Source: Mayamaea pseudoterrestris (lineage: Eukaryota). From it: a stretch of DNA of 64,000 nucleotides. Location of the stretch: assembly GCA_027923505.1 (NCBI GenBank), contig BROI01000001.1:2294001-2358000 (forward strand), read 5' to 3'. Positions within the stretch are counted from its first letter, which is position 1. Every line of letters starts with the position of its first letter. The notes below the pieces were generated by a model, which did not search any database, was not told where the DNA came from, and saw only the letters and a program-made list of their open reading frames with translations. This document shows positions 26,202 to 64,000 of the stretch, piece by piece. Made by a program: the position numbers and the translations under genes.

Positions 26202-27671
26202 TCACCATGACTCGGTCGTTGGCACTGGCGCCGGCTCAGGATTCGCGTAACCTGTAAACACGTTATTGTGAAAGGTTCCCTTTAAAACTTGCGCCCGACG
26301 GTTGCGGTGCTTGTTGGAATCTTTAAAGGTGTAAGTTCCATGCCCGTGCATGCGACCCGCCTGCAAGTCGCCAAGGTAAACGTCGCCACTTTCCACAAAC
26401 TTGAGGACGCCAACGCCATGCGGCTTGCCACGAAACATTGGACCAGAGTAGACAGCTGCCCTAACGCTCCCGTCGGCTGCAGTCAATGAGACTGCATGAC
26501 CGCGAACGCGCGTCGAGGGGTGTGGAGGTGGCGTCGACGCAGATGCGCCCGCAACACTGCCCAAGTCAGCGTCGGGTCGATGAAGAGAATGGTTCCCGCC
26601 GCCATCGGGACTGCCATCCTTGTCCATGTTTGTCAAAGTCGTGGACTGGTGGTCTGGATACAAGTTGGTCAAGCCAGAATTGACCGAAACGTTGCAGTCA
26701 TCGCCATGGTACACTTCAATCTGCTCAATCGGCAAGTAGCTAGAATTGTCGGCTTCATTATGAGGCTCGTGATCATCGTAGACTGTAACTGGTTGCTGCA
26801 GCTGCAGCGTCATGTTGTTCTGGTCTTGCGGCGTGCCAATGTTCTTGTAGAGACTCGTCAAGTAGTCCACTGGCTGTTGTTGCTGCTGTACAGTTTGCTG
26901 CACCATGAGCTTGGCTCGCAAGGCTTGAATCTCGGCTTGCTGCTGCGCGATTATTCCTTCACTTTGCGACAAGCAGACACGGCAGTTTGGGAGTCGGCAA
27001 AATTCGCGATGCGTCAGTAGGGTATTCCGCTCCCACCTTTTCGAGGTTTCTTCCAGCAGGCGATTCAATGCGCTGAGCGAATCTTCGTCGTCGTCGTCCT
27101 CCATAACATCGTCTTCGTCATAGTCTTCACCATCGTCTTCGTCTTCATCATACTCGTGAGCATTAGTGTCAAAGGAGCCAATTTCGTAGCTTCCAAGATC
27201 AGCTTGTTGGACTGGATGATTCACAAGGACCAGCGCCGTGGACAAATGACGCTGCAAATCCCAAGCAGCTTCATCGTCTTCAGTATTGGAGCGGCCGCGG
27301 ACCGAATTGTCAGTCGGCTCGCTGTTTTCGCCGCTGCTGCAGCTTGTGCAAGTGGCGGCTGTTCCGGTGCTTTCCGAGTAAAAGAGGTGCGGCGGACGAG
27401 TCAAACTTGATGATGCTGCGGGTCCATTCGTCCTTGCCGCCGATGACTGAGATGCGAGCGGCGAGGAATCTAGAGAATTCGTTTCGACATTGGACTTGCG
27501 GAGCTGTCCTGGAAAAGATGAATCTCCAGATTGCCCTGCATTCTCCTGCAGAGGAACTTCGAGCGCCGCTTGCTGCTGCTGTTGCTGCTGGCGTTTTTTG
27601 CGGTTTAAATGATTCAAATACGCCGACGTTACCGAGTTACGCGGAGGACGAAGCGCCGTGATTGCAGTCAT
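26202..27671 (-). CDS. Low-complexity protein with C-terminal MORN repeats
   Basis: C-terminal VYSGPMFRGKPHGVGVLKF..GDVYLGDLQAGRMHGHGTYTF. The start at MTAITALRPP was chosen over the upstream GTG. Confidence 0.8.
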   Translation of the reverse strand: MTAITALRPPRNSVTSAYLNHLNRKKRQQQQQQQAALEVPLQENAGQSGDSSFPGQLRKSNVETNSLDSSPLASQSSAARTNGPAASSSLTRPPHLFYSESTGTAATCTSCSSGENSEPTDNSVRGRSNTEDDEAAWDLQRHLSTALVLVNHPVQQADLGSYEIGSFDTNAHEYDEDEDDGEDYDEDDVMEDDDDEDSLSALNRLLEETSKRWERNTLLTHREFCRLPNCRVCLSQSEGIIAQQQAEIQALRAKLMVQQTVQQQQQPVDYLTSLYKNIGTPQDQNNMTLQLQQPVTVYDDHEPHNEADNSSYLPIEQIEVYHGDDCNVSVNSGLTNLYPDHQSTTLTNMDKDGSPDGGGNHSLHRPDADLGSVAGASASTPPPHPSTRVRGHAVSLTAADGSVRAAVYSGPMFRGKPHGVGVLKFVESGDVYLGDLQAGRMHGHGTYTFKDSNKHRNRRAQVLKGTFHNNVFTGYANPEPAPVPTTESW

Positions 27672-28956
27672 GATACTAACAGAGACTCTAGCAGTACTTG
27701 CTGTAAAAACTACTTGCGATAAATAGACTTGAGAAAGCAAGCAATTCACTTGTCTCGACTTGCAAAAGGAGTGGGTGCGTTGTGCCTCGCACATCCACTC
27801 GTTGGTGGCGTGGCGTGGCGTGATTCAAACCAATCGACGTTGGTTTCGAATGGCACATGAGAGGCTTATGTCGAAAGCATGCGGAGTATACCTGCCACGC
27901 CAATTTTGGTGAATAGCCAGCCAATGAATGCTCGCCAATGCATGTGCCTTCAAAACGTCAAGGTTCGCACTTGAATCTTGCTTGATTTTGTGACTCCCCA
28001 TGGTACCGGTAGGCCATTTCCGTCGGTCCTTCGAGTTTGAGAACATTCGACCATGGAGGCTTGCGACAAATCGTCTTCGGTCGCATAGTACACGGTAGTG
28101 ACAAGCTCGATATAGTTTTGGCAAATTGGATATTGACGCTTACCAAACAATACAGTTTCTCTCGCGTCCCTCTTGCCCCGTACTTGCGATTGATATATGA
28201 TATTACTGATACGGCGGTTTCTAACGTGGTGGACGAAGAGTGATTCGAGTACGAATAAGAAGTTACCGCTACTCGGATATATATGTGAAATTAGGCTACA
28301 GTAAATGAAAACCGGGTGGTTCATGGTGCTATAATGGTATTTAAACTTCCGGCTTCCGAAGTAAGGCAATTTTTGGATCCTTCCTTTGGCGGCGGCGATG
28401 CTCGAGCTATTTAATTCGGTTAACTAAAAGGCCTAATACAAGTGTCTGTGTACCCACTTAGCTTTGGGACTGTTAGTAAACTCTAAAGAGCTCGTTTTGT
28501 CGCGGTACCAAATTCAATGATACATGATGATGCCGACTGCCGATACTGCTGACGGCAGACGGCATATTGGCTGTCAGCACTTGATTAGCTCATTCGGTTC
28601 TGGATGAAGACGGCATAGCAAGTCGCGTATGTGAGATTGTGATCAAGTAATAAGCCAGGGTCATGGAAAAACTTTCTCAAAGTCGATTTCCAAGGCGTGT
28701 GGCGAATGGTCATGGTCGGCGCACGGCGCGCTTGAAATAACGAGTACCGGTCTAGACTCGCCCGGCTCGGTTACGACACAAACCTGCTTATTTAACCATC
28801 GCTGCCTGCTCGCTAGCGATTCCAGCGAATCCATTATTTTTTTGTCGTCATGAATCCGGCCACCAAGGCTTGCAGCTACTAGCACCTCGACTGCGTCTTC
28901 CCAGGCAGGCCTGACGACTGAAAAGGCTAGGACTGTACACTGCAATCGTCCTTGTC

Positions 28957-31140
28957 ATGTTGGCAAGCGTAAGAAATCGAATTGCCCAAGGCGATTTGCT
29001 TGGCACCAGGTCGATCAACATTGGATCATCGGCTCCATCGGCGGCACCTTCCAATTCCGGCGGCCAGTGGCCGTCCATTATGATGGCACCACCAAGCATT
29101 GCGAACGACGGAGGCGATTTCTACGATCAAATTCATTCAGAAATCAAGGATCTGCGGAGTCGCGTTGATGTGAGGTTAAGAGACGTTGTTTCAAATGGAG
29201 AGAATGAATTAGACTTTCTCACCGAGCAATTGGATGCACTGAAAAGACTGGAAACAGAGGAAGGGATGATAAACTTTGCAGCTGAAATGGAAGCCCGCAA
29301 TGATTTTTCTAACAAAATTTTGGTTGCTGAGTCTCCCTTGGACGATGCATCGGAGGGAGGAAAATCGTTTGACGATTTGCAGATTTCATCCTCGGCAGCG
29401 ACTGAACCAGCGAATAATCGCCGGCAGATTGCTATGGCGCGACGACTACACAAAATTAACTTCCCCGACGAAGACACTATTGCCGAGTCAGATGCTGAAA
29501 CGGAGGAATCCTCCAAGAGTGACTACGTTTTTCAAAACTCCATGATCATGGACAAACCGCAGGCTGCAAGGAAAAATGACGCCGTCACAAAAGCACGTGA
29601 GCTTGCCAGCCCAAAGTTTCGACATTTCTTTCCAGACAAAGAAACAGACAATAGAATCAGTAACAAAGCTACGATGAAGAGCCTCGTGGACACTCCCTCA
29701 GAGTCAAGCGCCATTGTGCCAGTGGCAATAACTCGATCTCCGTACGCAAGTCAAATGCGCGCATCCGTACAGCCGACAATCTATAACCGGCAGCAGTCAA
29801 AAGGTCAAGTAGGTGATTCAAGACCAAACATGAGTCAAATTCGCAACTTGTCCCAGCACGTTCCGTCGCTGCTGGATGGATTAGAAAGCCCAAGATCACC
29901 TCAGGTGACGCGCGAGCGCGAGCCGCCTGATACAGAGGTTGTCAGGCGTCGAGCAATTGTTCCTGATCCAAGTGGGGTCGACAACCAGCTGGCAATAAGT
30001 CCATCGCGCAGCGGACGTTACTTGCAAAGGAGCGACATAAGTGCCCAAAAGAACACAGGGCATCGCGATTCACAGCTCGACGAATTCATGTCATCACTCG
30101 ATTACCTCGACAAACAACATCAAGCGTCGTCTGCTGCAACACCACAAATTTCTCCTCATCCGTCACATACCCCATCAGTTAAATCCAGTGAGTCTGTTGA
30201 AAATCGCATTGTTGCAATCGACAGTAGTGATCTTTATAGCACGGCTATGAGTTCTGCTCTTAGCGTGGCACAATCCGTCGCCAGTCAAAGCTGCGCCTAC
30301 AAGGCCATGAATTTGGAGTCGCTGGCACATAGCTCAGTCACTGATAGTATGGCGCTCCACTCAGAGACTGACATCTTCGCCAAAATCGCAGCTGGCAAAA
30401 CCAACGGTGTCGTGCGGATAGAAAAGGTGCAAGGCCGCGCGCTGTGCGACCCATACGGTGACCGAGGACGTTATACTGGCATTTTGGTCAAAGGCAAACC
30501 ATATGGACATGGAACTATGCACTACGACGACGGTCGCAGCTACACTGGTGATTGGAAGAATGGTCGATGGCAAGGCAAGGGGCGAACGCTGTTTGTGAAT
30601 GGTGATTTTTATGTGGGTAAGTATGTCAAGGACCAGCGGCATGGTCTTGGTCGATATGAATGGAGCGACGGTCGAGTTTACGACGGCCAATTTATCAAGG
30701 ATCGAAGGGAAGGCAAAGGGACGTATACATGGCCTGATGGCGCTATATACGCCGGCGATTTCAATGCGGGACATCGGCACGGTCAAGGATGCTACAAATT
30801 TCCAGACGGATCAGTATACACAGGTGAATTTAAAGAAGGAAAGTACCACGGAGTCGGTGAATGTATATGGGCCGACGGGCGATGGTATCGTGGCGAGTGG
30901 GCTGAGGGCCATGCCCATGGCTACGGCGTTGAGGTCCGACCTGACGGCACGATTCGCCACGACGGCGAGTGGAAGAGCGATCGACCAGTACGAAATGGGA
31001 AGGAGCTGAAGGAGCGCAACATTCAAGACAACACCCGTAGAAAGAACAAGATTCCTGAAGGTGACCGGCCGAAGCGACGTTCGGCTCACCCACCTTCGCC
31101 TGGAATGAAGTCAAAGTTCATCTACCAAATAGATCCATAG
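28957..31140 (+). CDS. MORN-repeat protein (~8 repeats at the C-terminus)
   Basis: Repeated YxGxWxxGxxxGxGxxxxxxG units from DPYGDRGRYTG to DGTIRHDGEWKSDRPV. Confidence 0.9.
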   Translation: MLASVRNRIAQGDLLGTRSINIGSSAPSAAPSNSGGQWPSIMMAPPSIANDGGDFYDQIHSEIKDLRSRVDVRLRDVVSNGENELDFLTEQLDALKRLETEEGMINFAAEMEARNDFSNKILVAESPLDDASEGGKSFDDLQISSSAATEPANNRRQIAMARRLHKINFPDEDTIAESDAETEESSKSDYVFQNSMIMDKPQAARKNDAVTKARELASPKFRHFFPDKETDNRISNKATMKSLVDTPSESSAIVPVAITRSPYASQMRASVQPTIYNRQQSKGQVGDSRPNMSQIRNLSQHVPSLLDGLESPRSPQVTREREPPDTEVVRRRAIVPDPSGVDNQLAISPSRSGRYLQRSDISAQKNTGHRDSQLDEFMSSLDYLDKQHQASSAATPQISPHPSHTPSVKSSESVENRIVAIDSSDLYSTAMSSALSVAQSVASQSCAYKAMNLESLAHSSVTDSMALHSETDIFAKIAAGKTNGVVRIEKVQGRALCDPYGDRGRYTGILVKGKPYGHGTMHYDDGRSYTGDWKNGRWQGKGRTLFVNGDFYVGKYVKDQRHGLGRYEWSDGRVYDGQFIKDRREGKGTYTWPDGAIYAGDFNAGHRHGQGCYKFPDGSVYTGEFKEGKYHGVGECIWADGRWYRGEWAEGHAHGYGVEVRPDGTIRHDGEWKSDRPVRNGKELKERNIQDNTRRKNKIPEGDRPKRRSAHPPSPGMKSKFIYQIDP

Positions 31141-31252
31141 CTCCAATAATTTTGAATTGTATGAGACTTACTAAAGGCTTGGATAAATATCTTTGTACTA
31201 CAGACAGATTTACATGACAGTTATACATTGAATAATTAAATGCCCATCATCA

Positions 31253-33970
31253 TCAGATGATCGGTTCGTCCTCGCGCCATAGGCCGTCGTGGCGAACGGT
31301 TCCATCAGAGAATGTTTCGATACCTTTGCCATGCGCCATCCCGTTCAGCCATTCACTGTTAAATAACAATATCGTTAGACTTGCAACCAAGCGCGAAACA
31401 CCCGTTGCGTAATGATTACATACCCTTTGTAACACCTGCCATCCTCCCACGAGCAGACGCCATAGCCACTGTATCTTCCGTCCTTCCATGAGCCTTCGTA
31501 CTTGCCGCCATCGCTAAATGTGTATTGGCCTTGTCCTTCCCGCTGTCCGTTGCGAAACTCTCCCTCGTAAACTGCCCCATCGGGCCAAATAAACTTGCCC
31601 TTGCCGTGCCGCTTATCCTCGCGAAACATTCCATCGAAGACACGGCCATCGTGCCATTGATAAATGCCTCTCCCATGGCGTTGATCGAATCGATACTCGC
31701 CTTCGTATGTATCGCCATTCGCGAATGACGCTCTTCCAAAGCCATGCCAACGCCCATGTCTCCATTCGCCTGCATACGTGCGCTTGTCCTCGTGATATAC
31801 CATTTCTCCGTATCCATGTGGCATGCCAGTCGATCGCAGAATGATTCCAGTATATTCGCCCTTGTCGCCATAGGGATCCATGATGGTTTGCTTTTGCGCC
31901 TTGATTCGGTCTTCCCCAAATGTTGACGAGGCTACTGTATGTCCAACACTGGCGTTGTCGTCGACAAATGAAACTCCACCTGTCCTACTCTTGGGCGACT
32001 TCGGTTTTTGCGGCAAGATGGCTCGAGCGGCAGCTGGGTTCGTACCGGGCGAACGCGGTGGCAGGTTACGAGGTTGTCCATTCGATACGCCAACGACATT
32101 GTCACTCATCGCAACGACTGGTCGAGGAGGTGTGGTTGGATAATCTAGTTCTTGAGAAGTATCATTTACTGCGGCGTTTCCCTTATTGCCACTCGCACCG
32201 AACTCTGGAACCTGCGACTTGTTTTGATGCTGAATGTGCAAAGGTATGCTCGTCCCAAAAGTGATATTCTCCTCCAGTGGCACTGGCGGTGGTGCTCCTC
32301 CGTCAAATCCAATGTCCTGAGGAATCGATGCAGCAGCGAGCGAATACTCGTCCAAGTCGGATATTTGATGCGAACCTTCCACTTGTCGCAGTTCCTTGTT
32401 CCAATCAGGTTCACTATAGTTGTTGGAGGCATTCTCGTGCTCCTGATCCTGTTCCTGCACCTGCTCATGGTTTGGCCGACTCACTGGCCCTTCAAGAGCA
32501 TCATTACTCTGTTGACTGCTACCATAGACAACGCCGCCGCCAACAGCCTGGCTACCAAGATCGGCCACATTGTTCCTTCGCGGCGACGCATTCAGAAGTT
32601 CGGTTGCTCGCGAGGTCAGTGGGCCAACCTTACGCTTGTATGCATTCTTTTGTGCCTGTGTTTTGCTTGCCCGCGATCGCCCCGACGCACTATTTGCATC
32701 CGACGCCGGCCAAGTGATGCTATTGCTGTCGAACTCATCCTTGCCTTCATCCGACAAGTTTTCGCCCATGGAGTTGCCTGTGCCAACCGACTCATCGTGT
32801 GCTTCGTTGCCATTAAGTTGGGGTTGCTGAAGCAAATGACTATTGTTAACATTGCCAGACTCGCTTTCGTTAATGCCCGCACCACTTTGAGACTTTCTCC
32901 TATAACTCTGCTGCTGCGCATTGTCTTCAGACGACTGTAAGCTTGACGCCGGCATGAAGTCGGGCTGGAAGAAGGCTGGATCTTCAAACCCATGCCAAGA
33001 GTTGGAACTTGGCGTAGGACTGGGCATGAGATTGGCAGCTGGTGGCGGCGGAGGTTGTTGCTGCATCACGATCATTTGCTTGTCTTGGTTATTATTACCA
33101 GAAGTGCTCTTGCGTCCTTGTCGAGTCTGCATGGCTGCTAACTTGATGAGCTTAAGCTCTTGTTGCATGCGCTGCTCCTGTTGGTGTAGCTTTTCCGTAA
33201 GTAGAACATTATCAAGGCGCAACTGGTTCAAGTCAGCGTTTGCTTGCTCGAGTTGCTGCTTCAATTGCGCATTTTCGTTCTCCTTTTGCCAGATCATCCA
33301 ATCCTGCATTTGCTGCATGCGTTGGATTTGCATGGTGAGTGCATCGTACTGTGCTGGCGAGTTGTTTGGTTGCACTGGCGGCGGTGGACTCGACCAAAAT
33401 GAACCAGGCGGCGCTCCCATGGGCGTGCCTCCCGGCGATGGCCCTTGCGGTGGTTGCGATTGACTCATTTGTAGTGGAGTCGTTGGTAGCGCATGTGACT
33501 GCTGCTGCGGCATGTGCTGCTGATGGTGTTGTTGCTGCAAATGAGCTTGTTGCTGCTGCTGCTGCTGCTGCATGGGACTGGGAGGCGGCAATCCCATGCC
33601 TGGGTATCTTGGCGGCAATGAATGCGAGGTTGGCGACGGCTGACTAGTCGATGGATGATTCTGCTGTTGGTGTTGCTGCTGATTATGGAATGGATTCTGC
33701 TGCTGCAATTGTGGCGCAGACGGATGCTGCTGATGCATCATTTGCGTCGGAGCTCCGCCTTGGTTCGCTGTAGAAGAAGCTGGCTGATACATTTGCTGCT
33801 GCTGCAAATCGTACATTGGACGTGTCTGGACTTGTACTGGTACTTGCTGCTGCTGTTGCATCTGCTGGTATTGGTGCTGGGTGTTTTGCGACGACAGCAC
33901 CTTTTCTTCGGAGGAGGTCGCTCGATTACTCCACTGGAGCGTCTCTACTGGGGGTCCTGCATCGACGGAG

Positions 33971-34002
<32 letters not shown>

Positions 34003-34344
34003 ATCTGCATGATGCACCATGGCAATGGGAGGTTGCTGCTGCATATTATTTTCCATGCCGGCATTCCCATCGCTAGCAATATTAGTAGCATTAGGTGCTG
34101 TAGTTCCAAGTTCCTGCAATTTCTGCTGCACCAAGGCTTGCTGCTCCTTTAAAACGGATCTTTTTTCATAAAATTCCATTTCACATTCGCGACAAAGAGC
34201 GTTCCGATCATCGTATCTTCCGCCGTGTTTGGGACAGGTAAAGACTCGCTCGCCGTGAGCCATTGGCACTAATGTTGACTGCATGGTTGCGTACGTCCCG
34301 GCGCCCCAAGAGTCAATCGACTTGGCGTCGCTATTGTCGGCCAT
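31253..34344 (-). CDS. Q/P-rich coiled-coil protein with ~8 C-terminal MORN repeats; exons 34344-31424 and 31355-31253
   Basis: MORN units from DPYGDKGEYTG onward. The intron at 31423-31356 (GTATGT...CAG) restores CYKGEWLNGMAHGKG...DGTVRHDGLWREDEPII. Confidence 0.9.
33971..34002 (-). repeat. Perfect (CAG)n microsatellite encoding polyglutamine
   Basis: About 10-11 uninterrupted TGC/CTG triplets on the + strand, inside the MORN gene. Confidence 0.9.
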
Positions 34345-51139: not shown

Positions 51140-52565
51140 ATGCCTGCTCCTTCGTATACCCTCTATGCTCCAGAGGCTTCCTTTCGTGCCTTTTCGGTTC
51201 TAATTGCTGCCGAATACAATGGCGTTTCGATCAATGTAGATACTGACTTGAAGCATGCCTCCAAGAGCCCCGTCGGCAAGCTTCCCTTGCTGCAGTTGCC
51301 TGATGGATCAACCATCTTCAGTAGTCATGCCATGGCCAAGTATGTCGCTGGCTTGAGACGCGATACTGGATTGCTTGGCGAAACTTCGCAGGAAACGGCG
51401 GCGATTGACGCTTGGATGGATTGGGCTTCACATGATGTTGAGCTTCCAGCCTGCGTTTGGTTTTATCCGGCAGCGGGATACATTCCCTTTCAAGAAAATG
51501 CGTAAGTTCATAATGCGATCGGAGAATGGACGTGCTAGATGTCGTGATCACAGGGTTGCGTGCTTTGTTCGTGTCGCGCAAAGTGAAATGGCGAGTTGTC
51601 AATCCTTGATGAGTAACGACTTGTCACGCTTCGTCGGTAATTAACTTTACAGAATTTACTGACATTTTCGGCAATCAATTCTTTCCTATTCCTTTAGCTA
51701 CATCAAGGCCAAGACGGACCTTGCTGCCGCATTGACTGTCCTTGACGGATATTTGCTCGACAAGACGTACTTGGTTAGTAATCAGGTGACGCTTGCTGAC
51801 ATTGTCGTTGCTTCGACTTTGTTGTATCCATTCAAATTGGTTTGCGACAAGAACTTTATCAAGCCATTTGGAAATGTCATGCGTTGGTTCAATACCTGCG
51901 TCAATCAGCCTGAATTTGTCCAAGTCGTCGGCAAGGTGACGTTATGCAAAAAGGAGTTGTTAGCCAAGGGACAGTCCGCCGGAGGAGCGGCGGCTCCTAA
52001 GAAGGACGCCAAGAAGAAGGAGGACAAGAACGAAGCAGCTGCCGAAGTCGATTCGGAAGTTGCGCCTGTTAAGAAGGAGGAGCACCCCTATAAGATTATG
52101 GACCGTGAGACACCCTCGCCATTCATCATGGACGCTTGGAAGAAGCAGTATTCCAACGCACCTACTTACGAGGAGTCGATGAAGTGGTTTTGGGAAAATT
52201 TTGACGCCAATGGCTATTCCCTCTGGTTGCAAAACTACAAGTACAATGAAGAAAACAAGATGGTCTTCATGACAAGTAATGCCGTTGGAGGCTTTCAACA
52301 GCGCAGCGATGAAGTTCGCAAGTGGGCATTTGGTGTCATGGATGTGCTTGGAACGGAAGACACTACGCTCGAAATCAAGGGTGTTTGGTTACTGCGTGGA
52401 CAGACGGTGGAATATTTGCTGGCGGCGAACGACGATGCCAACTGGTACGACTGGACTAAGCTTGACCCAACGAATGAAGAACACAAGCAGATTGTTCAGG
52501 ATTACTGGTGCAGCGAGGAAACCCTCGAAGACAAGCCAATTCAGGACAGCAAAGTGTTCAAGTAG
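51140..52565 (+). CDS. EEF1G: Translation elongation factor 1B-gamma; exons 51140-51501 and 51698-52565
   Basis: GST-like N-terminal domain (SPVGKLPLL, TLADIV, NVMRWFNTCVNQPEF) plus EF1G domain (FIMDAWKKQYSN, YKYNEE, FMTSNAVGGFQQR); GTAAGT...TAG intron. Confidence 0.95.
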
Positions 52566-53203
52566 TGCCTGTGTGAGTGCAGCTGCCTGTGGGTGTTAGG
52601 GGTGCGACAAGTGGCTTTTGAGGTGTGACATGCTTTGAAGTTGGACGAATGCCTGATGTGGTCATGTTGCATGTTGAAAAATCTTTAGACCGGCTTGTAA
52701 TAATTATTTTAGTATCAATATAAGCAAGTACTGTATGTGACTTTGGCAACCCTGTAGGAGTTCTCCCCATGACCTTTCTCCCTACGACAAATGTCGGTGG
52801 CACAGCCTTAGAGGGTGAGCACCCATCGTAGTATCACTGACCCGTACGAAGTAGGGTCCAGTGAGTACAAACTTTCTCGCGTCTGTCACTCAAGATGTCT
52901 GTACGACTAGGGTAATGAAACTTCAACGTACAGAACCCGTCATGTCACCTAGGACGCAGGCTACCAATCCGCTACATCGCGTCACCCCCCTTAGCCTAGA
53001 CCTGGGTGACACATCCTTTTAAAACACTCTTACGATCCAGCACTGTACCAAGTACGCCCATTGGCATCCGTCTGGGCTTGAATCAACTGGGACTGCGCAG
53101 TGTTGGCGCGCTGCTGGGTTCGCTGCTGGGCTGAGTTGGCTAAGAACTGACGCAAGAAGCTATCCGGCTGCCCCCCACTGGTTACACTAGGAGCAGTTCC
53201 TGG

Positions 53204-56200
53204 TGGGTAGTACTGCGGATCTGGAAGCAGGCAACGTGCAGGAAGCAAATGCACAAAGTGAATGCACTATACAATATCCATTTGTGACCTTGGATCATGC
53301 CCCAAGCCAGTTTACAAAGAGATTGTGGGGATCTGATGTTTGCCACTGCTAGGGTAGGCAGTCACATAGTACCTGCTAACTGAAGCTGCTGACCTGAAGG
53401 CAAAAGGCAAGCAGGAGGCTGATGTGCAAAACAAATTCACCAAGGAGGTATGTCTTGTGCCCTCGGATCATGCACAGTGGCTGTACACATAGAGTGTGTG
53501 GGCACTTCATGTTTGCCACTGCTAGGTTGGTGTTCGGCAGTTGGGTAGTACATACCAGCAACTTCTGTGGATCTGGAAGCAGGCAACATGCAGGAGGCAA
53601 ATGCACAAAGTGAATGCACTATACAATATCCATTTGTGACCTTGGATCATGCCCCAAGCCAATTTACAAAGAGATTGTGGGGATCTGATGTTTGCCACTG
53701 CTAGGGTAGGCAGTCACATAGTACCTGCTAACTGAAGCTGCTGACCTGAAGGCAAAAGGCAAGCAGGAGGCTGATGCGCAAAACAAATTCACCAAGGAGG
53801 TATGTCTTGTGCCCTCGGATCATGCACAGTGGCTGTACGCATAGAGTGTGTGGGCACTTCATGTTTGCCACTGCTAGGTTGGTGTTCGGCAGTTGGGTAG
53901 TACATACCAGCAACTTCTGCGGATCTGGAAGCAGGCAACATGCAGGAGGCAAATGCACAAAGTGAATGCACTATACAATATCCATTTGTGACCTTGGATC
54001 ATGCCCCACGCCAGTTTACAAAGAGATTGTGGGGATCTGATGTTTGCCACTGCTAGGGTAGGCAGTCACATAGTACCTGCTAACTGAAGCTGCTGACCTG
54101 AAGGCAAAAGGCAAGCAGGAGGCTGATGCGCAAAACAAATTCACCAAGGAGTATGTCTTGTGCCCTCGGATCAAGCACAGTGGCTGTACGCATAGAGTGT
54201 GTGGGCACTTCATGTGTGCCACTGCTAGGTTGATGTTCGGCAGTTGGGTAGTACATACCAGCAACTTCTGCGGATCTGGAAGCAGGCAACATGCAGGAGG
54301 CAAATGCACAAAGTGAATGCACTATACAATATCCATTTGTGACCTTGGATCATGCCCCAAGCCAGTTTACAAAGAGATTGTGGGGATCTGATGTTTGCCA
54401 CTGCTAGGGTAGGCAGTCACATAGTACCTGCTAACTGAAGCTGCTGACCTGAAGGCAAAAGGCAAGCAGGAGGCTGATGCGCAAAACAAATTCACCAAGG
54501 AGGTATGTCTTGTGCCCTCGGATCATGCACAGTGGCTGTACGCATAGAGTGTGTGGGCACTTCATGTTTGCCACTGCTAGGTTGGTGTTCGGCAGTTGGG
54601 TAGTACATACCAGCAACTTCTGCGGATCTGGAAGCAGGCAACATGCAGGAGGCAAATGCACAAAGTGAATGCACTATACAATATCCATTTGTGACCTTGG
54701 ATCATGCCCCAAGCCAGTTTACAAAGAAATTGTGGGGATCTGATGTTTGCCACTGCTAGGGTAGGCAGTCACATAGTACCTGCTAACTGAAGCTGCTGAC
54801 CTGAAGGCAAAAGGCAAGCAGGGAGGCTGATGCGCAAAACAAATTCACCAAGGAGGTATGTCTTGTGCCCTCGGATCATGCACAGTGGCTGTACGCATAG
54901 AGTGTGTGGGCACTTCATGTTTGCCACTGCTAGGTTGGTGTTCGGCAGTTGGGTAGTACATACCAGCAACTTCTGCGGATCTGGAAGCAGGCAACATGAT
55001 GGGAGGCAAATGCACAAAGTGAATGCACTATACAATATCCATTTGTGACCTTGGATCATGCCCCAAGCCAGTTTACAAAGAGATTGTGGGGATCTGATGT
55101 TTGCCACTGCTAGGGTAGGCAGTCACATAGTACCTGCTAACTGAAGCTGCTGACCTGAAGGCAAAAGGCAAGCAGGAGGCTGATGCGCAAAACAAATTCA
55201 CCAAGGAGGTATGTCTTGTGCCCTCGGATCATGCACAGTGGCTGTACGCATAGAGTGTGTGGGCACTTCATGTTTGCCACTGCTAGGTTGGTGTTCGGCA
55301 GTTGGGTAGTACATACCAGCAACTTCTGCGGATCTGGAAGCAGGCAACATGCAGGAGGCAAATGCACAAAGTGAATGCACTATACAATATCCATTTGTGA
55401 CCTTGGATCATGCCCCAAGCCAGTTTACAAAGAGATTGTGGGGATCTGATGTTTGCCACTGCTAGGGTAGGCAGTCACATAGTACCTGCTAACTGAAGCT
55501 GCTGACCTGAAGGCAAAAGGCAAGCAGAAGGCTGATGCGCCAAAAAAATTCACCAAAGAGGTATGTCTTGTGCCCTCGGATCATGCACAGTGGCTGTACG
55601 CATAGAGTGTGTGGGCACTTCATGTTTGCCACTGCTAGGTTGGTGTTCGGCAGTTGGGTAGTACATACCAGCAACTTCTGCGGATCTGGAAGCAGGCAAC
55701 ATGCAGGAGGCAAATGCACAAAGTGAATGCACTATACAATATCCATTTGTGACCTTGGATCATGCCCCAAGCCAGTTTACAAAGAGATTGTGGGGATCTG
55801 ATGTTTGCCACTGCTAGGGTAGGCAGTCACATAGTACCTGCTAACTGAAGCTGCTGACCTGAAGGCAAAAGGCAAGCAGGAGGCTGATGCGCAAAACAAA
55901 TTCACAAAGGAGGTATGTCTTGTGCCCTTGGATCATGCACAGTGGCTGTACGCATAGAGTGTGTGGGCACTTCATGTTTGCCACTGCTAGGTTGGTGTTC
56001 GGCAGTTGGGTAGTACTTACCAGCAACTTCTGCGGATCTGGAAGCAGGCAACATGCAGGAGGCAAATGCACAAAGATAATGCACTATACAATATCCATTT
56101 GTGACCTTGGATCATGCCCCAAGCCTGTTTACAAAGAGATTGTGGGGATCTGATGTTTGCCACTGCTAGGGTAGGCAGTCACAAAGTACCTGCTAACTGA

Positions 56201-59200
56201 AGCTGCTGACCTGAAGGCAAAAGGCAAGCAGGAGGCTGATGCGCAAAACGAATTCACCAAGGAGGTATGAATTGTGCCCTCGGATCATGCACAGTGGCTG
56301 TACGCATAGAGTGTGTGGGCACTTCATGTTTGCCACTGCTAGGTTGGTGTTCGGCAGTTGGGTAGTACATACCAGCAACTTCTGCGGATCTGGAAGCAGG
56401 CAACATGCAGGAGGCAAATGCACAAAGTGAATGCACTATACAATATCCATTTGTGACCTTGGATCATGCCCCAAGCCAGTTTACAAAGAGATTGTGGGGA
56501 TCTGATGTTTGCCACTGCTAGGGTAGGCAGTCACATAGTACCTGCTAACTGAAGCTGCTGACCTGAAGGCAAAAGGCAAGCAGGAGGCTGATGCGCAAAA
56601 CAAATTCACCAAGGAGGTATGTCTTGTGCCCTCGGATCATGCACAGGGCTGTCCATAGAGTGTGTGGGCACTTCATTTGCTAAGTTGGTGTTCGGCAGTT
56701 GGGTAGTACATACCAGCAACTTCTGCGGATCTGGAAGCAGGCAACATGCAGGAGGCAAATGCACAAAGTGAATGCACTATACAATATCCATTTGTGACCT
56801 TGGATCATGCCCCAAGCCAGTTTACAAAGAGATTGTGGGGATCTGATGTTTGCCACTGCTAGGGTAGGCAGTCACATAGTACCTGCTAACTGAAGCTGCT
56901 GACCTGAAGGCAAAAGGCAAGCAGGAGGCTGATGCGCAAAACAAATTCACCAAGGAGGTATGTCTTGTGCCCTCGGATCATGCACAGTGGCTGTACGCAT
57001 AGAGTGTGTGGGCACTTCATGTTTGCCACTGCTAGGTTGGTGTTTGGCAGTTGGGTAGTACATACCAGCAACTTCTGCGGATCTGGAAGCAGGCAACATG
57101 CAGGAGGCAAATGCACAAAGTGAATGCACTATACAATATCCATTTGTGACCTTGGATCATGCCCCAAGCCAGTTTACAAAGAAATTGTGGGGATCTGATG
57201 TTTGCCACTGCTAGGGTAGGCAGTCACATAGTACCTGCTAACTGAAGCTGCTGACCTGAAGGCAAAAGGCAAGCAGGAGGCTGATGCGCAAAACAAATTC
57301 ACCAAGGAGGTATGTCTTGTGCCCTCGGATCATGCACAGTGGCTGTACGCATAGAGTGTGTGGGCACTTCATGTTTGCCACTGCTAGGTTGGTGTTCGGC
57401 AGTTGGGTATTACATACCAGCAACTTCTGCGGATCTGGAAGCAGGCAACATGCAGGAGGCAAATGCACAAAGTGAATGCACTATACAATATCCATTTGCG
57501 ACCTTGGATCATGCCCCAAGCCAGTTTACAAAGAGATTGTGGGGATCTGATGTTTGCCACTGCTAGGGTAGGCAGTCACATAGTACCTGCTAACTGAAGC
57601 TGCTGACCTGAAGGCAAAAGGCAAGCAGGAGGCTGATGCGCAAAACAAATTCACCAAGGAGGTATGTCTTGTGCCCTCGGATCATGCACAGTGGCTGTAC
57701 GCATAGAGTGTGTGGGCACTTCATGTTTGCCACTGCTAGGTTGGTGTTCGGCAGTTGGGTAGTACATACCAGCAACTTCTGCGGATCTGGAAGCAGGCAA
57801 CATGCAGGAGGCAAATGCACAAAGTGAATGCACTATACAATATCCATTAGTGACCTTGAATCATGCCCCAAGCCAGTTTACAAAGAGATTGTGGGGATCT
57901 GATGTTTGCCACTGCTAGGGTAGGCAGTCACATAGTACCTGCTAACTGAAGCTGCTGACCTGAAGGCAAAAGGCAAGCAGGAGGCTGATGCGCAAAACAA
58001 ATTCACCAAGGAGGTATGTCTTGTGCCCTCGGATCATGCACAGTGGCTGTACGCATAGAGTGTGTGGGCACTTCATGTTTGCCACTGCTAGGTTGGTGTT
58101 CGGCAGTTGGGTAGTACATACCAGCAACTTCTGCGGATCTGGAAGCAGGCAACATGCAGGAGGCAAATGCACAAAGTGAATGCACTATACAATATCCATT
58201 TGTGACCTTGGATCATGCCCCAAGCCAGTTTACAAAGAGATTGTGGGGATCTGATGTTTGCCACTGCTAGGGTAGGCAGTCACATAGTACCTGCTAACTG
58301 AAGCTGCTAACCTGAAGGCAAAAGGCAAGCAGGAGGCTGATGCGCAAAACAAATTCACCAAGGAGGTATGTCTTGTGCCCTCGGATCATGCACAGGTTTC
58401 TGTACGCATAGAGTGTGTGGGCACTTCATGTTTGCCACTGCTAGGTTGGTGTTCGGCAGTTGGGTAGTACATACCAGCAACTTCTGCGGATCTGGAAGCA
58501 GGCAACATGCAGGAGGCAAATGCACAAAGTGAATGCACTATACAATATCCATTTGTGACCTTGGATCATGCCCCAAGCCAGTTTACAAAGAGATTGTGGG
58601 GATCTGATGTTTGCCACTGCTAGGGTAGGCAGTCACATAGTACCTGCTAACTGAAGCTGCTGACCTGAAGGCAAAAGGCAAGCAGGAGGCTGATGCGCAA
58701 AACAAATTCACCAAGGAGGTATGTCTTGTGCCCTCGGATCATGCACAGTGGCTGTACGCATAGAGTGTGTGGGCACTTCATGTTTGCCACTGCTAGGTTG
58801 GTGTTCAGCAGTTGGGTAGTACATACCAGCAACTTCTGCGGATCTGGAAGCAGGCAACATGCAGGAGGCAAATGCACAAAGTGAATGCACTATACAATAT
58901 CCATTTGTGACCTTGGATCATGCCCCAAGCCAGTTTACAAAGAGATTGTAAGGATCTGATGTTCGCCACTGCTAGGGTAGGCAGTCACATAGTACCTGCT
59001 AACTGAGCTGCTGACCTGAAGGCAAAAGGCAAGCAGGAGGCTGATGCGCAAAACAAATTCACCAAGGAGGTATGTCTTGTGCCCTCGGATCATGCACAGT
59101 GGCTGTACGCATAGAGTGTGTGGGCACTTCATGTTTGCCACTGCTAGGTTGGTGTTCGGCAGTTGGGTAGTACATACCAGCAACTTCTGCGGATCTGGAA

Positions 59201-62200
59201 GCAGGCAACATGCAGGAGGCAAATGCACAAAGTGAATGCACTATACAATATCCATTTGTGACCTTGGATCATGCCCCAAGCCAATTTACATAGAGATTGT
59301 GGGGATCTGATGTTTGCCACTGCTAGGGTAGGCAGTCACATAGTACCTGCTAACTGAAGCTGCTGACCTGAAGGCAAAAGGCAAGCAGGAGGCTGATGCG
59401 CAAAACAAATTCACCAAGGAGGTATGTCTTGTGCCCTCGGATCATGCACAGTGGCTGTACGCATAGAGTGTGTGGGCACTTCATGTTTGCCACTGCTAGG
59501 TTGGTGTTCGGCAGTTGGGTAGTACATACCAGCAACTTCTGCGGATCTAGAAGCAGGCAACATGCAGGAGGCAAATGCACAAAGTGAATGCACTATACAA
59601 TATCCATTTGTGACCTTGGATCATGCCCCAAGCCAATTTACAAAGAGATTGTGGGGATCTGATGTTTGCCACTGCTAGGGTAGGCAGTCACATAGTACCT
59701 GCTAACTGAAGCTGCTGACCTGAAGGCAAAAGGCAAGCAGGAGGCTGATGCGCAAAACAAATTCACCAAGGAGGTATGACTTGGGCCCTCGGATCATGCA
59801 CAGTGGCTGTACACATAGAGTGTGTGGGCACTTCATGTCTGCCACTGCTAGGTTGGTGTTCGGCAGTTGGGTAGTACATACCAGCAACTTCTGCGGATCT
59901 GGAAGCAGGCAACATGCAGGAGGCAAATGCACAAAGTGAATGCACTATACAATATCAATTTGTGACCTTGGATCATGCCCAAGCCAGTTTACAAAGAGAT
60001 TGTGGGGATCTGATGTTTGCCACTGCTAGGGTAGGCAGTCACGTAGTACCTGCTAACTGAAGCTGCTGACCTGAAGGCAAAAGGCAAGCAGGAGGCTGAT
60101 GCGCAAAACAAATTCACCAAGGAGGTATGTCTTGTGCCCTCGGATCATGCACAGTGGCTGTACGCATAGAGTGTGTGGGCACTTCATGTTTGCCACTGCT
60201 AGGTTGGTGTTCGGCAGTTGGGTAGTACATACCAGCAACTTCTGCGGATCTGGAAGCAGGCAACATGCAGGAGGCAAATGCACAAAGTGAACGCACTATA
60301 CAATATCCATTTGTGACCTTGGATCATGCCCCAAGCCAGTTTACAAAGAGATTGTTGGGATCTGATGTTTGCCGCTGCTAGGGTAGGCAGTCACATAGTA
60401 CCTGCTAACTGAAGCTGCTGACCTGAAGGCAAAAGGCAAGCAGGAGGCTAATGCGCAAAACAAATTCACCAAGGAGGTATGACTTGGGCCCTCGGATCAT
60501 GCACAGTGGCTGTACACATAGAGTGTGTGGGCACTTCATGTTTGCCACTGCTAGGTTGGTGTTTGGCAGTTGGGTAGTACATACCAGCAACTTCTGCGGA
60601 TCTGGAAGCAGGCAACATGCAGGAGGCAAATGCACAAAGTGAATGCACTATACAATATCCATTTGTGACCTTGGATCATGCCCAAGCCAGTTTACAAAGA
60701 GATTGTGGGGATCTGATGTTTGCCACTGCTAGGGTAGGCAGTCACATAGTACCTGCTAACTGAAGCTGCTGACCTGAAGGCAAAAGGCAAGCAGGAGGCT
60801 GATGCGCAAAACAAATTCACCAAGGAGGTATGTCTTGTGCCCTCGGATCATGCACAGTGGCTGTACGCATAGAGTGTGTGGGCACTTCATGTTTGCCACT
60901 GCTAGGTTGGTGTTCGGCAGTTGGGTAGTACATACCAGCAACTTCTGCGGATCTGGAAGCAGGCAACATGCAGGAGGCAAATGCACAAAGTGAACGCACT
61001 ATACAATATCCATATGTGACCTTGGATCATGCCCCAAGCCAGTTTACAAAGAGATTGTGGGGATCTGATGTTTGCCACTGCTAGGGTAGGCAGTCACATA
61101 GTACCTGCTAACTGAAGCTGCTGACCTGAAGGCAAAAGGCAAGCAGGAGGCTGATGCGCAAAACAAATTCACTAAGGAGGTATGTCTTGTGCCCTCGGAT
61201 CATGCACAGTGGCTGTACGCATAGAGTGTGTGGGCACTTCATGTTTGCCACTGCTAGGTTGGTGTTCGGCAGTTGGGTAGTACATACCAGCAACTTCTGC
61301 GGATCTGGAAGCAGGCAACATGCAGGAGGCAAATGCACAAAGTGAATGCACTATACAATATCCATTTGTGACCTTGGATCATGCCCCAAGCCAATTTACA
61401 TAGAGATTGTGGGGATCTGATGTTTGCCACTGCTAGGGTAGGCAGTCACATAGTACCTGCTAACTGAAGCTGCTGACCTGAAGGCAAAAGGCAGCAGGAG
61501 GCTGATGCGCAAAACAAATTCACCAAGGAGGTATGTCTTGTGCCCTCGGATCATGCACAGTGGCTGTACACATAGAGTGTGTGGGCACTTCATGTTTGCC
61601 ACTGCTAGGTTGGTGTTCGGCAGTTGGGTAGTACATACCAGCAACTTCTGCGGATCTGGAAGCAGGCAACATGCAGGAGGCAAATGCACAAAGTGAATGC
61701 ACTATACAATATCCATTTGTGACCTTGGATCATGCCCCAAGCCAATTTACATAGAGATTGTGGGGATCTGATGTTTGCCACTGCTAGGGTAGGCAGTCAC
61801 ATAGTACCTGCTAACTGAAGCTGCTGACCTGAAGGCAAAAGGCAAGCAGGAGGCTGATGCGCAAAACAAATTCACCAAGGAGGTATGTCTTGTGCCCTCG
61901 GATCATGCACAGTGGCTGTACACATAGAGTGTGTGGACACTTCATGTTTGCCACTGCTAGGTTGGTGTTCGGCAGTTGGGTAGTACATACCAGCAACTTC
62001 TGCGGATCTGGAAGCAGGCAACATGCAGGAGGCAAATGCACAAAGTGAATGCACTATACAATATCCATTTGTGACCTTGGATCATGCCCCAAGCCAGTTT
62101 ACAAAGAGATTGTGGGGATCTGATGTTTGCCACTGCTAGGGTAGGCAGTCACATAGTACCTGCTAACTGAAGCTGCTGACCTGAAGGCAAAAGGCAAGCA

Positions 62201-62993
62201 GGAGGCTGATGCGCAAAACAAATTCACCAAGGAGGTATGTCTTGTGCCCTCGGATCATGCACAGTGGCTGTACGCATAGAGTGTGTGGGCACTTCATGTT
62301 TGCCACTGCTAGGTTGGTGTTCGGCAGTTGGGTAGTACATACCAGCAACTTCTGCGGATCTGGAAGCAGGCAACATGCAGGAGGCAAATGCACAAAGTGA
62401 ATGCACTATACAATATCCATTAGTGACCTTGGATCATGCCCCAAGCCAATTTACATAGAGATTGTGGGGATCTGATGTTTGCCACTGCTAGGGTAGGCAG
62501 TCACATAGTACCTGCTAACTGAAGCTGCTGACCTGAAGGCAAAAGGCAAGCAGGAGGCTGATGCGCAAAACAAATTCACCAAGGAGGTATGACTTGGGCC
62601 CTCGGATCATGCACAGTGGCTGTACACATAGAGTGTGTGGGCACTTCATGTCTGCCACTGCTAGGTTGGTGTTTGGCAGTTGGGTAGTACATACCAGCAA
62701 CTTCTGCGGATCTGGAAGCAGGCAACATGCAGGAGGCAAATGCACAAAGTGAATGCACTATACAATATCCATTTGTGACCTTGGATCATGCCCCAAGCCA
62801 GTTTACAAAGAGATTGTGGGGATCTGATGTTTGCCGCTGCTAGGGTAGGCAGTCACATAGTACCTGCTAACTGAAGCTGCTAACCTGAAGGCAAAAGGCA
62901 AGCAGGAGGCTGATGCACAAAACAAATTCACCAAGGAGGTATGTCTTGTGCCCTCGGATCATGCACAGGTGGCTGTACTCATAGAGTGTGTGG
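53204..62993. repeat. Satellite A: ~28 tandem copies of a 352-bp unit (a dimer of diverged 173- and 179-bp monomers)
   Basis: Near-identical units recur every 351-353 bp (ORF-track repeats at 53376, 53728 ... 62163, 62515). The internal motifs GGATCATGC and ATGTTTGCCACTGCTAGG each occur twice per unit. Confidence 0.98.
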
Positions 62994-64000
62994 ATGCCAT
63001 GCCCTGAGAATCAGCACATTCAACAACTGGTTGAATGTGCCAGCCCTGCTCCTTTTGTGGCTGCAAGAATCATCAGGTTTCCTTGCTGAGCCCACCAAAA
63101 TATTTCAAATAGGTTTGTTGTCATGATGGGCCATAAGTTGGTCAATTGCACCTCAGTATCCATCACCGTGTATGCCATGGTGAGACTCAAACCGACCTTA
63201 CAACTTATTGGTTCTGCCAGTGGTGCACCTCAAGTGGCAAGTGAGACTTCCAAAATGGCCTGCAGACCCCATAATACACCAAACATGGACTGTAACAGTG
63301 AATGTGACTCATAGACTTGTTCTTTTAGGTGTGGAAGCCATCACTGTGCCCTGAGACTCCGCACATTCAACAACTGGTTGAATGTGCCAGCCCTGCTCCC
63401 TTTGTGGCTGCAGGGATCATCAGCATTGCATGCTGAGCCCTCCCAATCCCTTTCATATCATGTTTGTTGTCATGATGGGCCATAGTTGGTCAGTTGCACC
63501 TCAGTATTCATCACCATGTATGCCATGGTGAGACTGAACCAACCCCACAACTTGTTGGATCTGCCAGCGGTGCACCTCAAGTGGCAAGTGAGACTTCCAA
63601 AATGGCCTGCAGACCCCATAATGCAATGCACATGGACTGTAACAGTGAATGGGACTCATAGACTTGTCCATTGGGGTGTGGAAGCCATCACTATGCCCTG
63701 AGACTCCACACATTCAACAACTGGTTGAACGTGGCAGCCCTGCTCCTTTTGTGGCTGCAGGGATCATCAGCATTGCCTGCTGAGCCCTCCAATATATTAC
63801 AAATAGGTTGGTGGTCATGATGGGCCATAAGTTGGTCAGTTGCACCTCAGTATCCATCACCTTGTACGCCATGGTGAGACTGAGCAGATCCAACAACTTG
63901 TTGGATCTGCCAGCAGTGCACCTCAAGTGGCAAGTAAGACTTCCAAAATGGCCTCCAGACCCCATAATACAATAAACATAAATTTGAACAGTGATTGGGA
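62988..64000. repeat. Satellite B: about 3 tandem copies (truncated by the window end) of a more diverged 347-bp unit
   Basis: CACATTCAACAACTGGTTGAA recurs at 63015, 63362 and 63709 (period 347). Copies differ at many more sites than those of satellite A. Confidence 0.95.

Follow-up and report, generated by a model that had tools for sequence, protein, structure and literature searches.

A dimeric 352-bp satellite with nucleosome-sized halves in islands of the Mayamaea pseudoterrestris genome

Satellites with nucleosome-sized monomers, arranged in dimers or higher-order repeats, include primate alpha satellite and Arabidopsis CEN178/180. Dyad symmetry or a 10-bp periodicity is common in centromeric satellites, but not universal. 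In the literature that we found, the centromeres of diatoms are short and lack repeats, and their heterochromatin is portrayed as islands of transposons. The centromeres of Phaeodactylum tricornutum are reported to be low in GC and without repeats (bioRxiv 10.1101/096016), and the putative centromeres of Fistulifera solaris to be without highly repeated elements (bioRxiv 10.1101/2021.11.10.468027). Diatom genomes are also described as carrying CG-methylated repeat islands amid unmethylated DNA, in a DNMT5a-dependent manner, and when DNMT5a is lost in Phaeodactylum, CG methylation disappears, a mark that is located on the repeat islands (bioRxiv 10.1101/2021.06.11.447926). In the stramenopile Phytophthora parasitica, the satellites PpSat1 and PpSat2 were described, with PpSat2 arrays near gene-rich regions and a centromere role proposed, not shown (PMC7290008). 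Here we analyze S352, a tandem repeat with a 352-bp unit found in a 64,000-nucleotide stretch (the window) of the diatom Mayamaea pseudoterrestris. The window corresponds to C1:2,294,001-2,358,000 of a 30.6-Mb assembly of 41 contigs (GCA_027923505.1; contigs are denoted C1, C2 and so on). We consider it probable that S352 is a non-coding satellite family within a library of unrelated nucleosome-length satellites, forming small CG-methylated islands at interstitial and terminal sites.

The array and its internal features, in window positions, are the following.

53213-62993, plus strand: the S352 array, in which the 352-bp dimer is repeated head to tail 27.8 times (Tandem Repeats Finder, CpG content, unit comparison).
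53292-53464, plus strand: monomer A, the 173-bp half of the first dimer, split at GGATCATGC, with 63% identity to monomer B.
53465-53643, plus strand: monomer B, the 179-bp half, split at GGATCATGC.
59191-62707, plus strand: units 18-27, which have a common patchwork of variants (unit positions 94, 101, 237, 242, 271 and 297; unit-by-unit variant list).

Tandem Repeats Finder, applied to the 64-kb window, gives a period of 352 with 98% matches between copies, that is, a long head-to-tail array with a unit within the 150-500 bp range of satellites. The dimeric nature of the unit is evident from several comparisons. The motif GGATCATGC is found at 53292, 53465 and 53644, and an 18-mer motif at 53336 and 53509. 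The only self-offsets scoring above 0.33 are 173 and 179 (0.44 each). Monomers A and B are identical in 115 of 182 alignment columns, and their alignment score of 154 far exceeds those of base shuffles (37+-9, maximum 66, n=1000) and dinucleotide shuffles (50+-6, maximum 63, n=60). By contrast with the diverged halves, the 27 whole units of the array have a mean pairwise difference of 2.0%, with 26 distinct sequences among them. The dimer itself is thus ancient, and it was amplified only recently. The patchwork of units 18-27 suggests local amplification or gene conversion. Much of this structure had been recognized in an earlier reading of the letters (the original prediction), which described a homogeneous satellite of about 10 kb, built from a cryptic 173 + 179 bp dimer, at roughly 50% GC. 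The measured GC content is 49%, the dimer withstands the shuffles, and all motifs are present at the quoted positions. The proposed start at 53204 takes in ~9 degenerate bases ahead of the Tandem Repeats Finder start at 53213. S352 is non-coding, as the unit length is not a multiple of three and the longest open frame in the concatenated unit has 80 codons. An array of structured RNAs or RNA genes was rejected because Rfam gave no matches over 52000-64000 at E up to 1 and the fold is no better than that of shuffled sequences (fold z -0.03).

The satellites are also depleted in CpG. The observed/expected ratio is about 0.23-0.24 in S352 and 0.09-0.47 in the other satellite families, whereas the flank (1-52500) stands at 1.09, with all 148 bins above 0.30. 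TpG/CpA ratios in the satellites reach 1.4-1.9. Among 132 whole units from 15 tracts, transitions per site per unit amount to 0.049 at CpG versus 0.005 at other C/G sites, with nine of the ten S352 CpG positions hit; the unit contains five CpGs. At the CpG at 53464, T makes up 41% of the summed depth of sequencing run X1 and 15% of that of X2, and is absent from X4; the site being variable in the runs, CpG variation is not only a matter of consensus error. From this signature we infer that the satellite arrays are probably CG-methylated. Three C5-methyltransferase matches are found in the genome (C2, C8 and C19). The methyltransferase-like frame on C2 (~17.1-20.4 kb) matches PDB 7r76 (E 5e-40), an entry that the listing names Rad8 and that we take to be Cryptococcus DNMT5. 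By this match, the C2 frame is a candidate DNMT5-like methyltransferase gene.

S352 is dispersed over the genome. A 20-base S352 motif, allowing at most one mismatch, has 377 matches in the assembly and picks up 202 of the ~241 units of the first-fetched tracts, which translates into ~450 units, 160 kb or 0.5% of the assembly, within the hundreds to thousands of copies characteristic of satellite DNA. Tracts are present on at least 11 of the 41 contigs (C1, C3, C4, C7, C10, C18, C19, C23, C30, C31 and C38) and measure 0.3-13 kb, the longest being 13 kb. On C1 two sites are separated by 1.6 Mb, on C10 and C18 S352 lies close to each end, and on C4 two tracts are separated by 30 kb. In the islands, S352 is interleaved with families of 168, 169, 174, 181 and 183 bp (S168, S169, S174, S181 and S183) and with the 347-bp S347. 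S352 aligns with S347, S169, S181, S168, S174 and S183 no better than with dinucleotide shuffles (p 0.09-0.92). Common ancestry of the families was considered and rejected, as no S352 pair beats dinucleotide shuffles, with the exception of a 315-bp repeat (z 2.9) that has short periods within it; S174 and S183 are the sole pair that looks related. The S181 family formed its own dimers of 349-352 bp.

Comparison of the tracts bears on how the family spread. S352 copies from one array differ by 1.3% and those from separate arrays by 1.9%, versus 37% between the two halves of the unit, which is the pattern of concerted evolution. Among 17 tracts, the borders are spread over many positions of the unit and the flanks differ, so no carrier element is evident. 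The linker between S181 and S352 is the same on C10 and C31, and a segment composed of S352 and a retroelement-like fragment occurs three times on C18. Segments containing several families may thus have been copied by ectopic recombination, with unequal exchange operating within arrays. Taken as a whole, an S352 tract would most likely be a methylated heterochromatic satellite island spread by segmental copying. Its history could have been as follows. An ancestral ~176-bp monomer would have duplicated, and the halves drifted to 63% identity. The dimer would then have become the unit of recent amplification, with unequal exchange or gene conversion homogenizing the copies both inside arrays and across them. 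Tracts would move between islands as multi-family segments via ectopic recombination, not inside a transposon. A DNMT5-type enzyme would maintain CG methylation of the arrays, and deamination would have removed most CpGs. Finally, the common unit length of 168-183 bp may reflect one nucleosome plus linker per monomer, caused either by recombination in register on chromatin or by selection for regular packing.

Several points weigh against this interpretation. The transition rates derive from 132 of ~241 unit-equivalents, limited to units of 335-365 bp that contain the anchor motif. The islands were fetched for matching satellites and are thus a non-random sample. Several 5' borders are concentrated at unit positions 338-349, a cluster left unexplained by pure randomness. 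S352 has no 10-bp dinucleotide periodicity (p 0.90-0.99), so that unit length is what links it to the nucleosome, and no diatom nucleosome repeat length was found in the literature listing searched. Heterochromatin is, in addition, compatible with a centromere. An intrinsic nucleosome-positioning signal in S352 was among the candidates rejected: two of 24 tests gave p<0.05, both for the S181 dimer and uncorrected.

A different view of the array would be that it is an assembly expansion, or an internal repeat of one transposon or virus. To the credit of an artefact, single-unit insertions and deletions, together with an error-rich S347-like stretch at C1:2361199-2361724, point to imperfect polishing. 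We compared four sequencing runs (X1, X2, X4 and X7) over 51800-53568; 14 runs with small shares of the sequence were set aside, X7 excepted. X4 comes from the same study and has the same allele as X1 and is not independent, and X2 may be the source of the window. The unit is joined to itself 352 bases back in all four runs. One of these, X7, is a rhizosphere metagenome of a separate study, in which the S352 unit is present without flanks as a 351-base contig; its four differences agree in number and span with the private variants of the first copy in the window. Four sites of the flanking gene differ between X1 and the window, indicating that X1 represents another strain or haplotype. Summed read depth, unit versus gene, is ~4,100-5,000x in X1 and 6,400-7,200x in X2, values that are inflated by overlapping short contigs and taken only as 'highly repeated'. 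The head-to-tail joints in four runs and the distinctness of 26 of 27 units, with variants common to blocks of units, argue that the array is not an assembly expansion. Against a transposon or virus, the family occurs on at least 11 contigs without a common flank, has no match among viral contigs, belongs to no Rfam family and has frames of at most 80 codons. The array is therefore real DNA, its exact length resting on the assembly. The original prediction had itself named a single-locus transposon repeat or an assembly expansion among what would overturn it; the runs, the unit variants and the number of contigs speak against both, and we regard this view as already largely refuted and extremely improbable. 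Five JGI metagenome matches were discarded as 22-base chance matches, and no RNA data are among the runs listed as carrying the sequence.

The array occupies the left part of an island set in ordinary DNA. The flanking genes are ordinary and tightly packed, with Pfam matches in 14 of 17 frames scanned, and gene-dense DNA stops ~650 bp ahead of the array. The features bordering the array are listed below.

51879-52565, plus strand: last flanking gene piece, with an elongation factor 1-gamma domain (PF00647, E 5e-41).
52833-52941, no strand assigned: ~109-bp dispersed repeat of non-satellite type in the spacer that separates the array from the last gene (ten further loci match it, with 71-99% identity).
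62994-62998, plus strand: point at which S352 passes straight into S347, without an intervening spacer or terminal structure (GTGTGG in both units at the switch point).
62999-64000, plus strand: start of the S347 satellite, a palindrome-rich 170 + 177 bp dimer (88% matches between copies; 10.4 copies to C1:2360588).

The dispersed repeat has a hairpin-like start, and its read depth is raised, with differing flanks. In S347, 109 of 182 columns are identical between the halves (score 118 vs 50+-9) and a dyad excess is present (fold z -5.8). With 88% matches between copies, S347 is older than S352; the original prediction had not noticed this second, unrelated satellite. It is found at many interstitial sites (93 first-look candidates) and continues past the window to about C1:2377072, so that the island extends ~19 kb beyond the window and measures ~30 kb in all; genes resume to the right of it (~C1:2,377,000) and are thus present on both sides. 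The S347 array contains a 3.7-kb insertion (C1:2360589-2364264) with a 708-codon frame, for which Pfam gives no match and Atlas offers only unnamed neighbours, at low recognition. The insertion has four close copies (91-100%), each with satellite within ~1.5 kb. The CpG-rich S347-like stretch at C1:2361199-2361724 was considered as an ancestral source and rejected, since its many single-base gaps fit poor polishing better.

Other observations concern the same DNA. Positions 52560-52810 of the window, the 3' flank of the elongation factor gene, are duplicated (97%) at C34:235968-236219, and in run X1 this interval has doubled depth and two alleles. Three neighbouring MORN-repeat genes lie at 26202-34344, of which two are minus-strand and one is plus-strand. 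Six long silicon-transporter matches in the assembly fit a diatom host, and one 1445-codon frame with three silicon-transporter repeats is found at C1:2970661-2974680. Satellite islands contain an 11-bp minisatellite (312 copies, nearly CpG-free) at C18:60-3500 and an 8-bp minisatellite (61 copies) at C1:724178-724646. CpG-poor satellites with periods of 173, 162 and 176 at C1:1238001-1239254, 2150001-2153948 and 2211415-2212565 match none of the eight query families.

The distribution of satellites at contig ends concerns the possibility that S352 is a subtelomeric satellite, placed interstitially either by a past fusion of chromosomes, of which it would be the scar, or by the assembler joining sequences wrongly through repeats. 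Out of 82 contig ends, 33 have satellite within 4 kb and 24 stop inside satellite; S169 is the family at 17 ends, S181 at 13 and S352 at one, and S352 has no telomere repeat beside it. Four perfect TTAGGG in a row occur in the whole assembly only at the start of C11 and once inside C30. The sole assembled telomere (C11:1-2219) abuts an array of S181-family 352-bp dimers (180 + 172), which favours a subtelomeric origin; despite the equal unit length, this array is unrelated to S352. The other TTAGGG run (C30:219806-219829) lies between S169 and S181 tracts, ~9 kb from an S352 tract, and is possibly a healed-and-fused chromosome end, or a false join. Methylated repeats of model diatoms are also described as often near telomeres (bioRxiv 10.1101/2021.06.11.447926). 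However, some islands on C1, of 5-8 kb, lie between unique DNA. As for a false join, the read comparison covered the left side of the island only, but there a 288-base X1 contig crosses the left junction without differences, although with 22 bases on the array side (the rule was 31 bases). On balance, a subtelomeric or falsely joined S352 seems unlikely, and the earlier suggestion of subtelomeric heterochromatin finds no support, with S352 at a single contig end and missing beside the one assembled telomere.

Whether the islands of methylated satellite include centromeres is a separate question. With monomers of 173 and 179 bp, S352 is near one nucleosome length, and its monomer and dimer sizes fit the 170/340-bp class of centromeric satellites (PMC7290008). 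Regional satellite centromeres would consist of one large CENH3 block per chromosome, probably of S169 or S181, with S352 tracts as centromeric or pericentric parts. The 24 contig ends that stop inside satellite indicate longer, unassembled arrays. Retroelement-like fragments inside arrays are in keeping with this (a weak Pol domain match, E 0.0017, below the cut-off). So is a divergent histone H3 on C2 (~130.3-130.6 kb), with 66/90 identities to canonical H3, a loop 1 that is one residue longer and substitutions that we presume to be typical of CenH3; by sequence it is CenH3-like. A low-GC peak of the Phaeodactylum type is absent from 19 satellite-chosen blocks (<2% of the genome), none of which has more than two low-GC windows per 3 kb, and runs of 24 A/T are confined to 12 scattered places; the restriction of the low-GC scan to satellite-chosen DNA counts against the argument. 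Other stramenopiles are reported to have repeat-rich centromeres of average GC (PMC7082073) or retrotransposon-marked ones (PMC11541908).

On the other side, C1 has at least six separate satellite islands, two of them with S352, and a monocentric chromosome can use one. The island at the window measures only ~30 kb and has genes on both sides. S352 tracts do not exceed 13 kb, and S352 has neither a 10-bp signal nor an excess of dyad symmetry (fold z -0.03; dyad p 0.68). It also looks less abundant than its two neighbours S169 and S181, a ranking taken from contig ends and first-look candidates (30 for S352 vs 220 for S181), not from reads. A monocentric centromeric satellite is expected to form one domain per chromosome and to be the most abundant tandem repeat, and S352 appears to do neither. 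Regional satellite centromeres of this kind are therefore a rather improbable explanation. The original prediction had proposed that the array could mark a satellite centromere and had asked whether there is one array per chromosome. Instead, there are several sites per contig, with far-apart pairs on C1, C10 and C18 (contigs are not proven chromosomes). What survives of that interpretation is the satellite, its nucleosome-sized dimer and, in the CpG loss, a signature of methylated chromatin; the centromeric or subtelomeric mark is not supported. Nothing here marks S352 as a centromere, and its distribution argues against it as the sole centromere marker.

The same dispersal could be read as repeat-based holocentric or polycentric chromosomes, each island being a centromere unit as in Rhynchospora. 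Many short arrays of 168-183-bp units lie between genes, at least six of them on the 3-Mb contig C1, and a CenH3-like gene is present. The Rhynchospora repeat Tyba has monomers of 172 and 182 bp in dispersed, CENH3-bound arrays (bioRxiv 10.64898/2026.01.17.700053). Yet Tyba is one conserved family, whereas the islands here are mosaics of unrelated families; the islands found on C1 are unevenly spaced (~50 kb to 900 kb), the search for a carrier element yielded none, and Phaeodactylum ChIP-seq is reported to give roughly one short centromere per chromosome. Holocentric organization is thus very unlikely. It is doubtful, too, that this diatom abandoned the short low-GC centromere for satellite centromeres, possibly several per chromosome, drawn from a library of unrelated families that converged on nucleosome length, three of them forming ~350-bp dimers independently, and with the island as one unit. 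The tract in the window is best regarded, with reasonable likelihood, as a silent island or the margin of one, and not by itself as a centromere. S352 is satellite DNA and, judging from its sequence, would act like ordinary satellite heterochromatin.

The 30-Mb genome of this diatom, where at least six unrelated families of 168-183-bp monomers make up sharp-edged islands, offers a compact system for asking what brings satellite units to the length of a nucleosome and whether satellites can serve as centromeres in diatoms. CenH3-like and DNMT5-like genes having been located, both questions are open to standard chromatin assays. The S352 array adds one family to the satellite picture and does not alone settle centromere identity. 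A literature search, largely of open-access texts and with supplements not included, found no diatom satellite of the S352 kind.

Among known systems, S352 resembles alpha satellite and CEN178/180 in that diverged monomers of ~170-180 bp are amplified as a homogeneous dimer, in concerted evolution and in the retroelements inside arrays. Unlike in those satellites, the assembled tracts measure 0.3-13 kb, not hundreds of kb, occur at several sites per contig and are mixed with unrelated families, and the 49% GC sequence has no dyad excess or 10-bp periodicity. The Phaeodactylum and Fistulifera centromeres are likewise from diatoms, but S352 forms a tandem array whose GC equals the genome average and which lacks any low-GC window; the original prediction had rightly set the array apart from the Phaeodactylum centromeres, described as low-GC and non-repetitive (bioRxiv 10.1101/096016). 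PpSat1 and PpSat2 are similar, by description, as stramenopile satellite families, but are described as two families on separate scaffolds, versus at least six interleaved families here (PMC7290008). Tyba shares the monomer sizes and the many discrete arrays, and differs as a single conserved family with CENH3 proof, the mosaics here being known from sequence alone (bioRxiv 10.64898/2026.01.17.700053). The subtelomeric satellite of Ectocarpus is also from a stramenopile, and a sister family here, S181, touches the sole assembled telomere; the Ectocarpus repeat is however 98 bp long, has TTAGGG motifs and is reported as almost confined to subtelomeres, whereas S352 is mostly interstitial in this assembly (PMC11541908). 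The DNMT5-methylated islands of diatoms share with those described here the sharp edges, the CG-methylation signature, the gene-dense genome and a DNMT5-like gene; the islands described so far consist mainly of transposons, and those of M. pseudoterrestris mainly of satellites (bioRxiv 10.1101/2021.06.11.447926).

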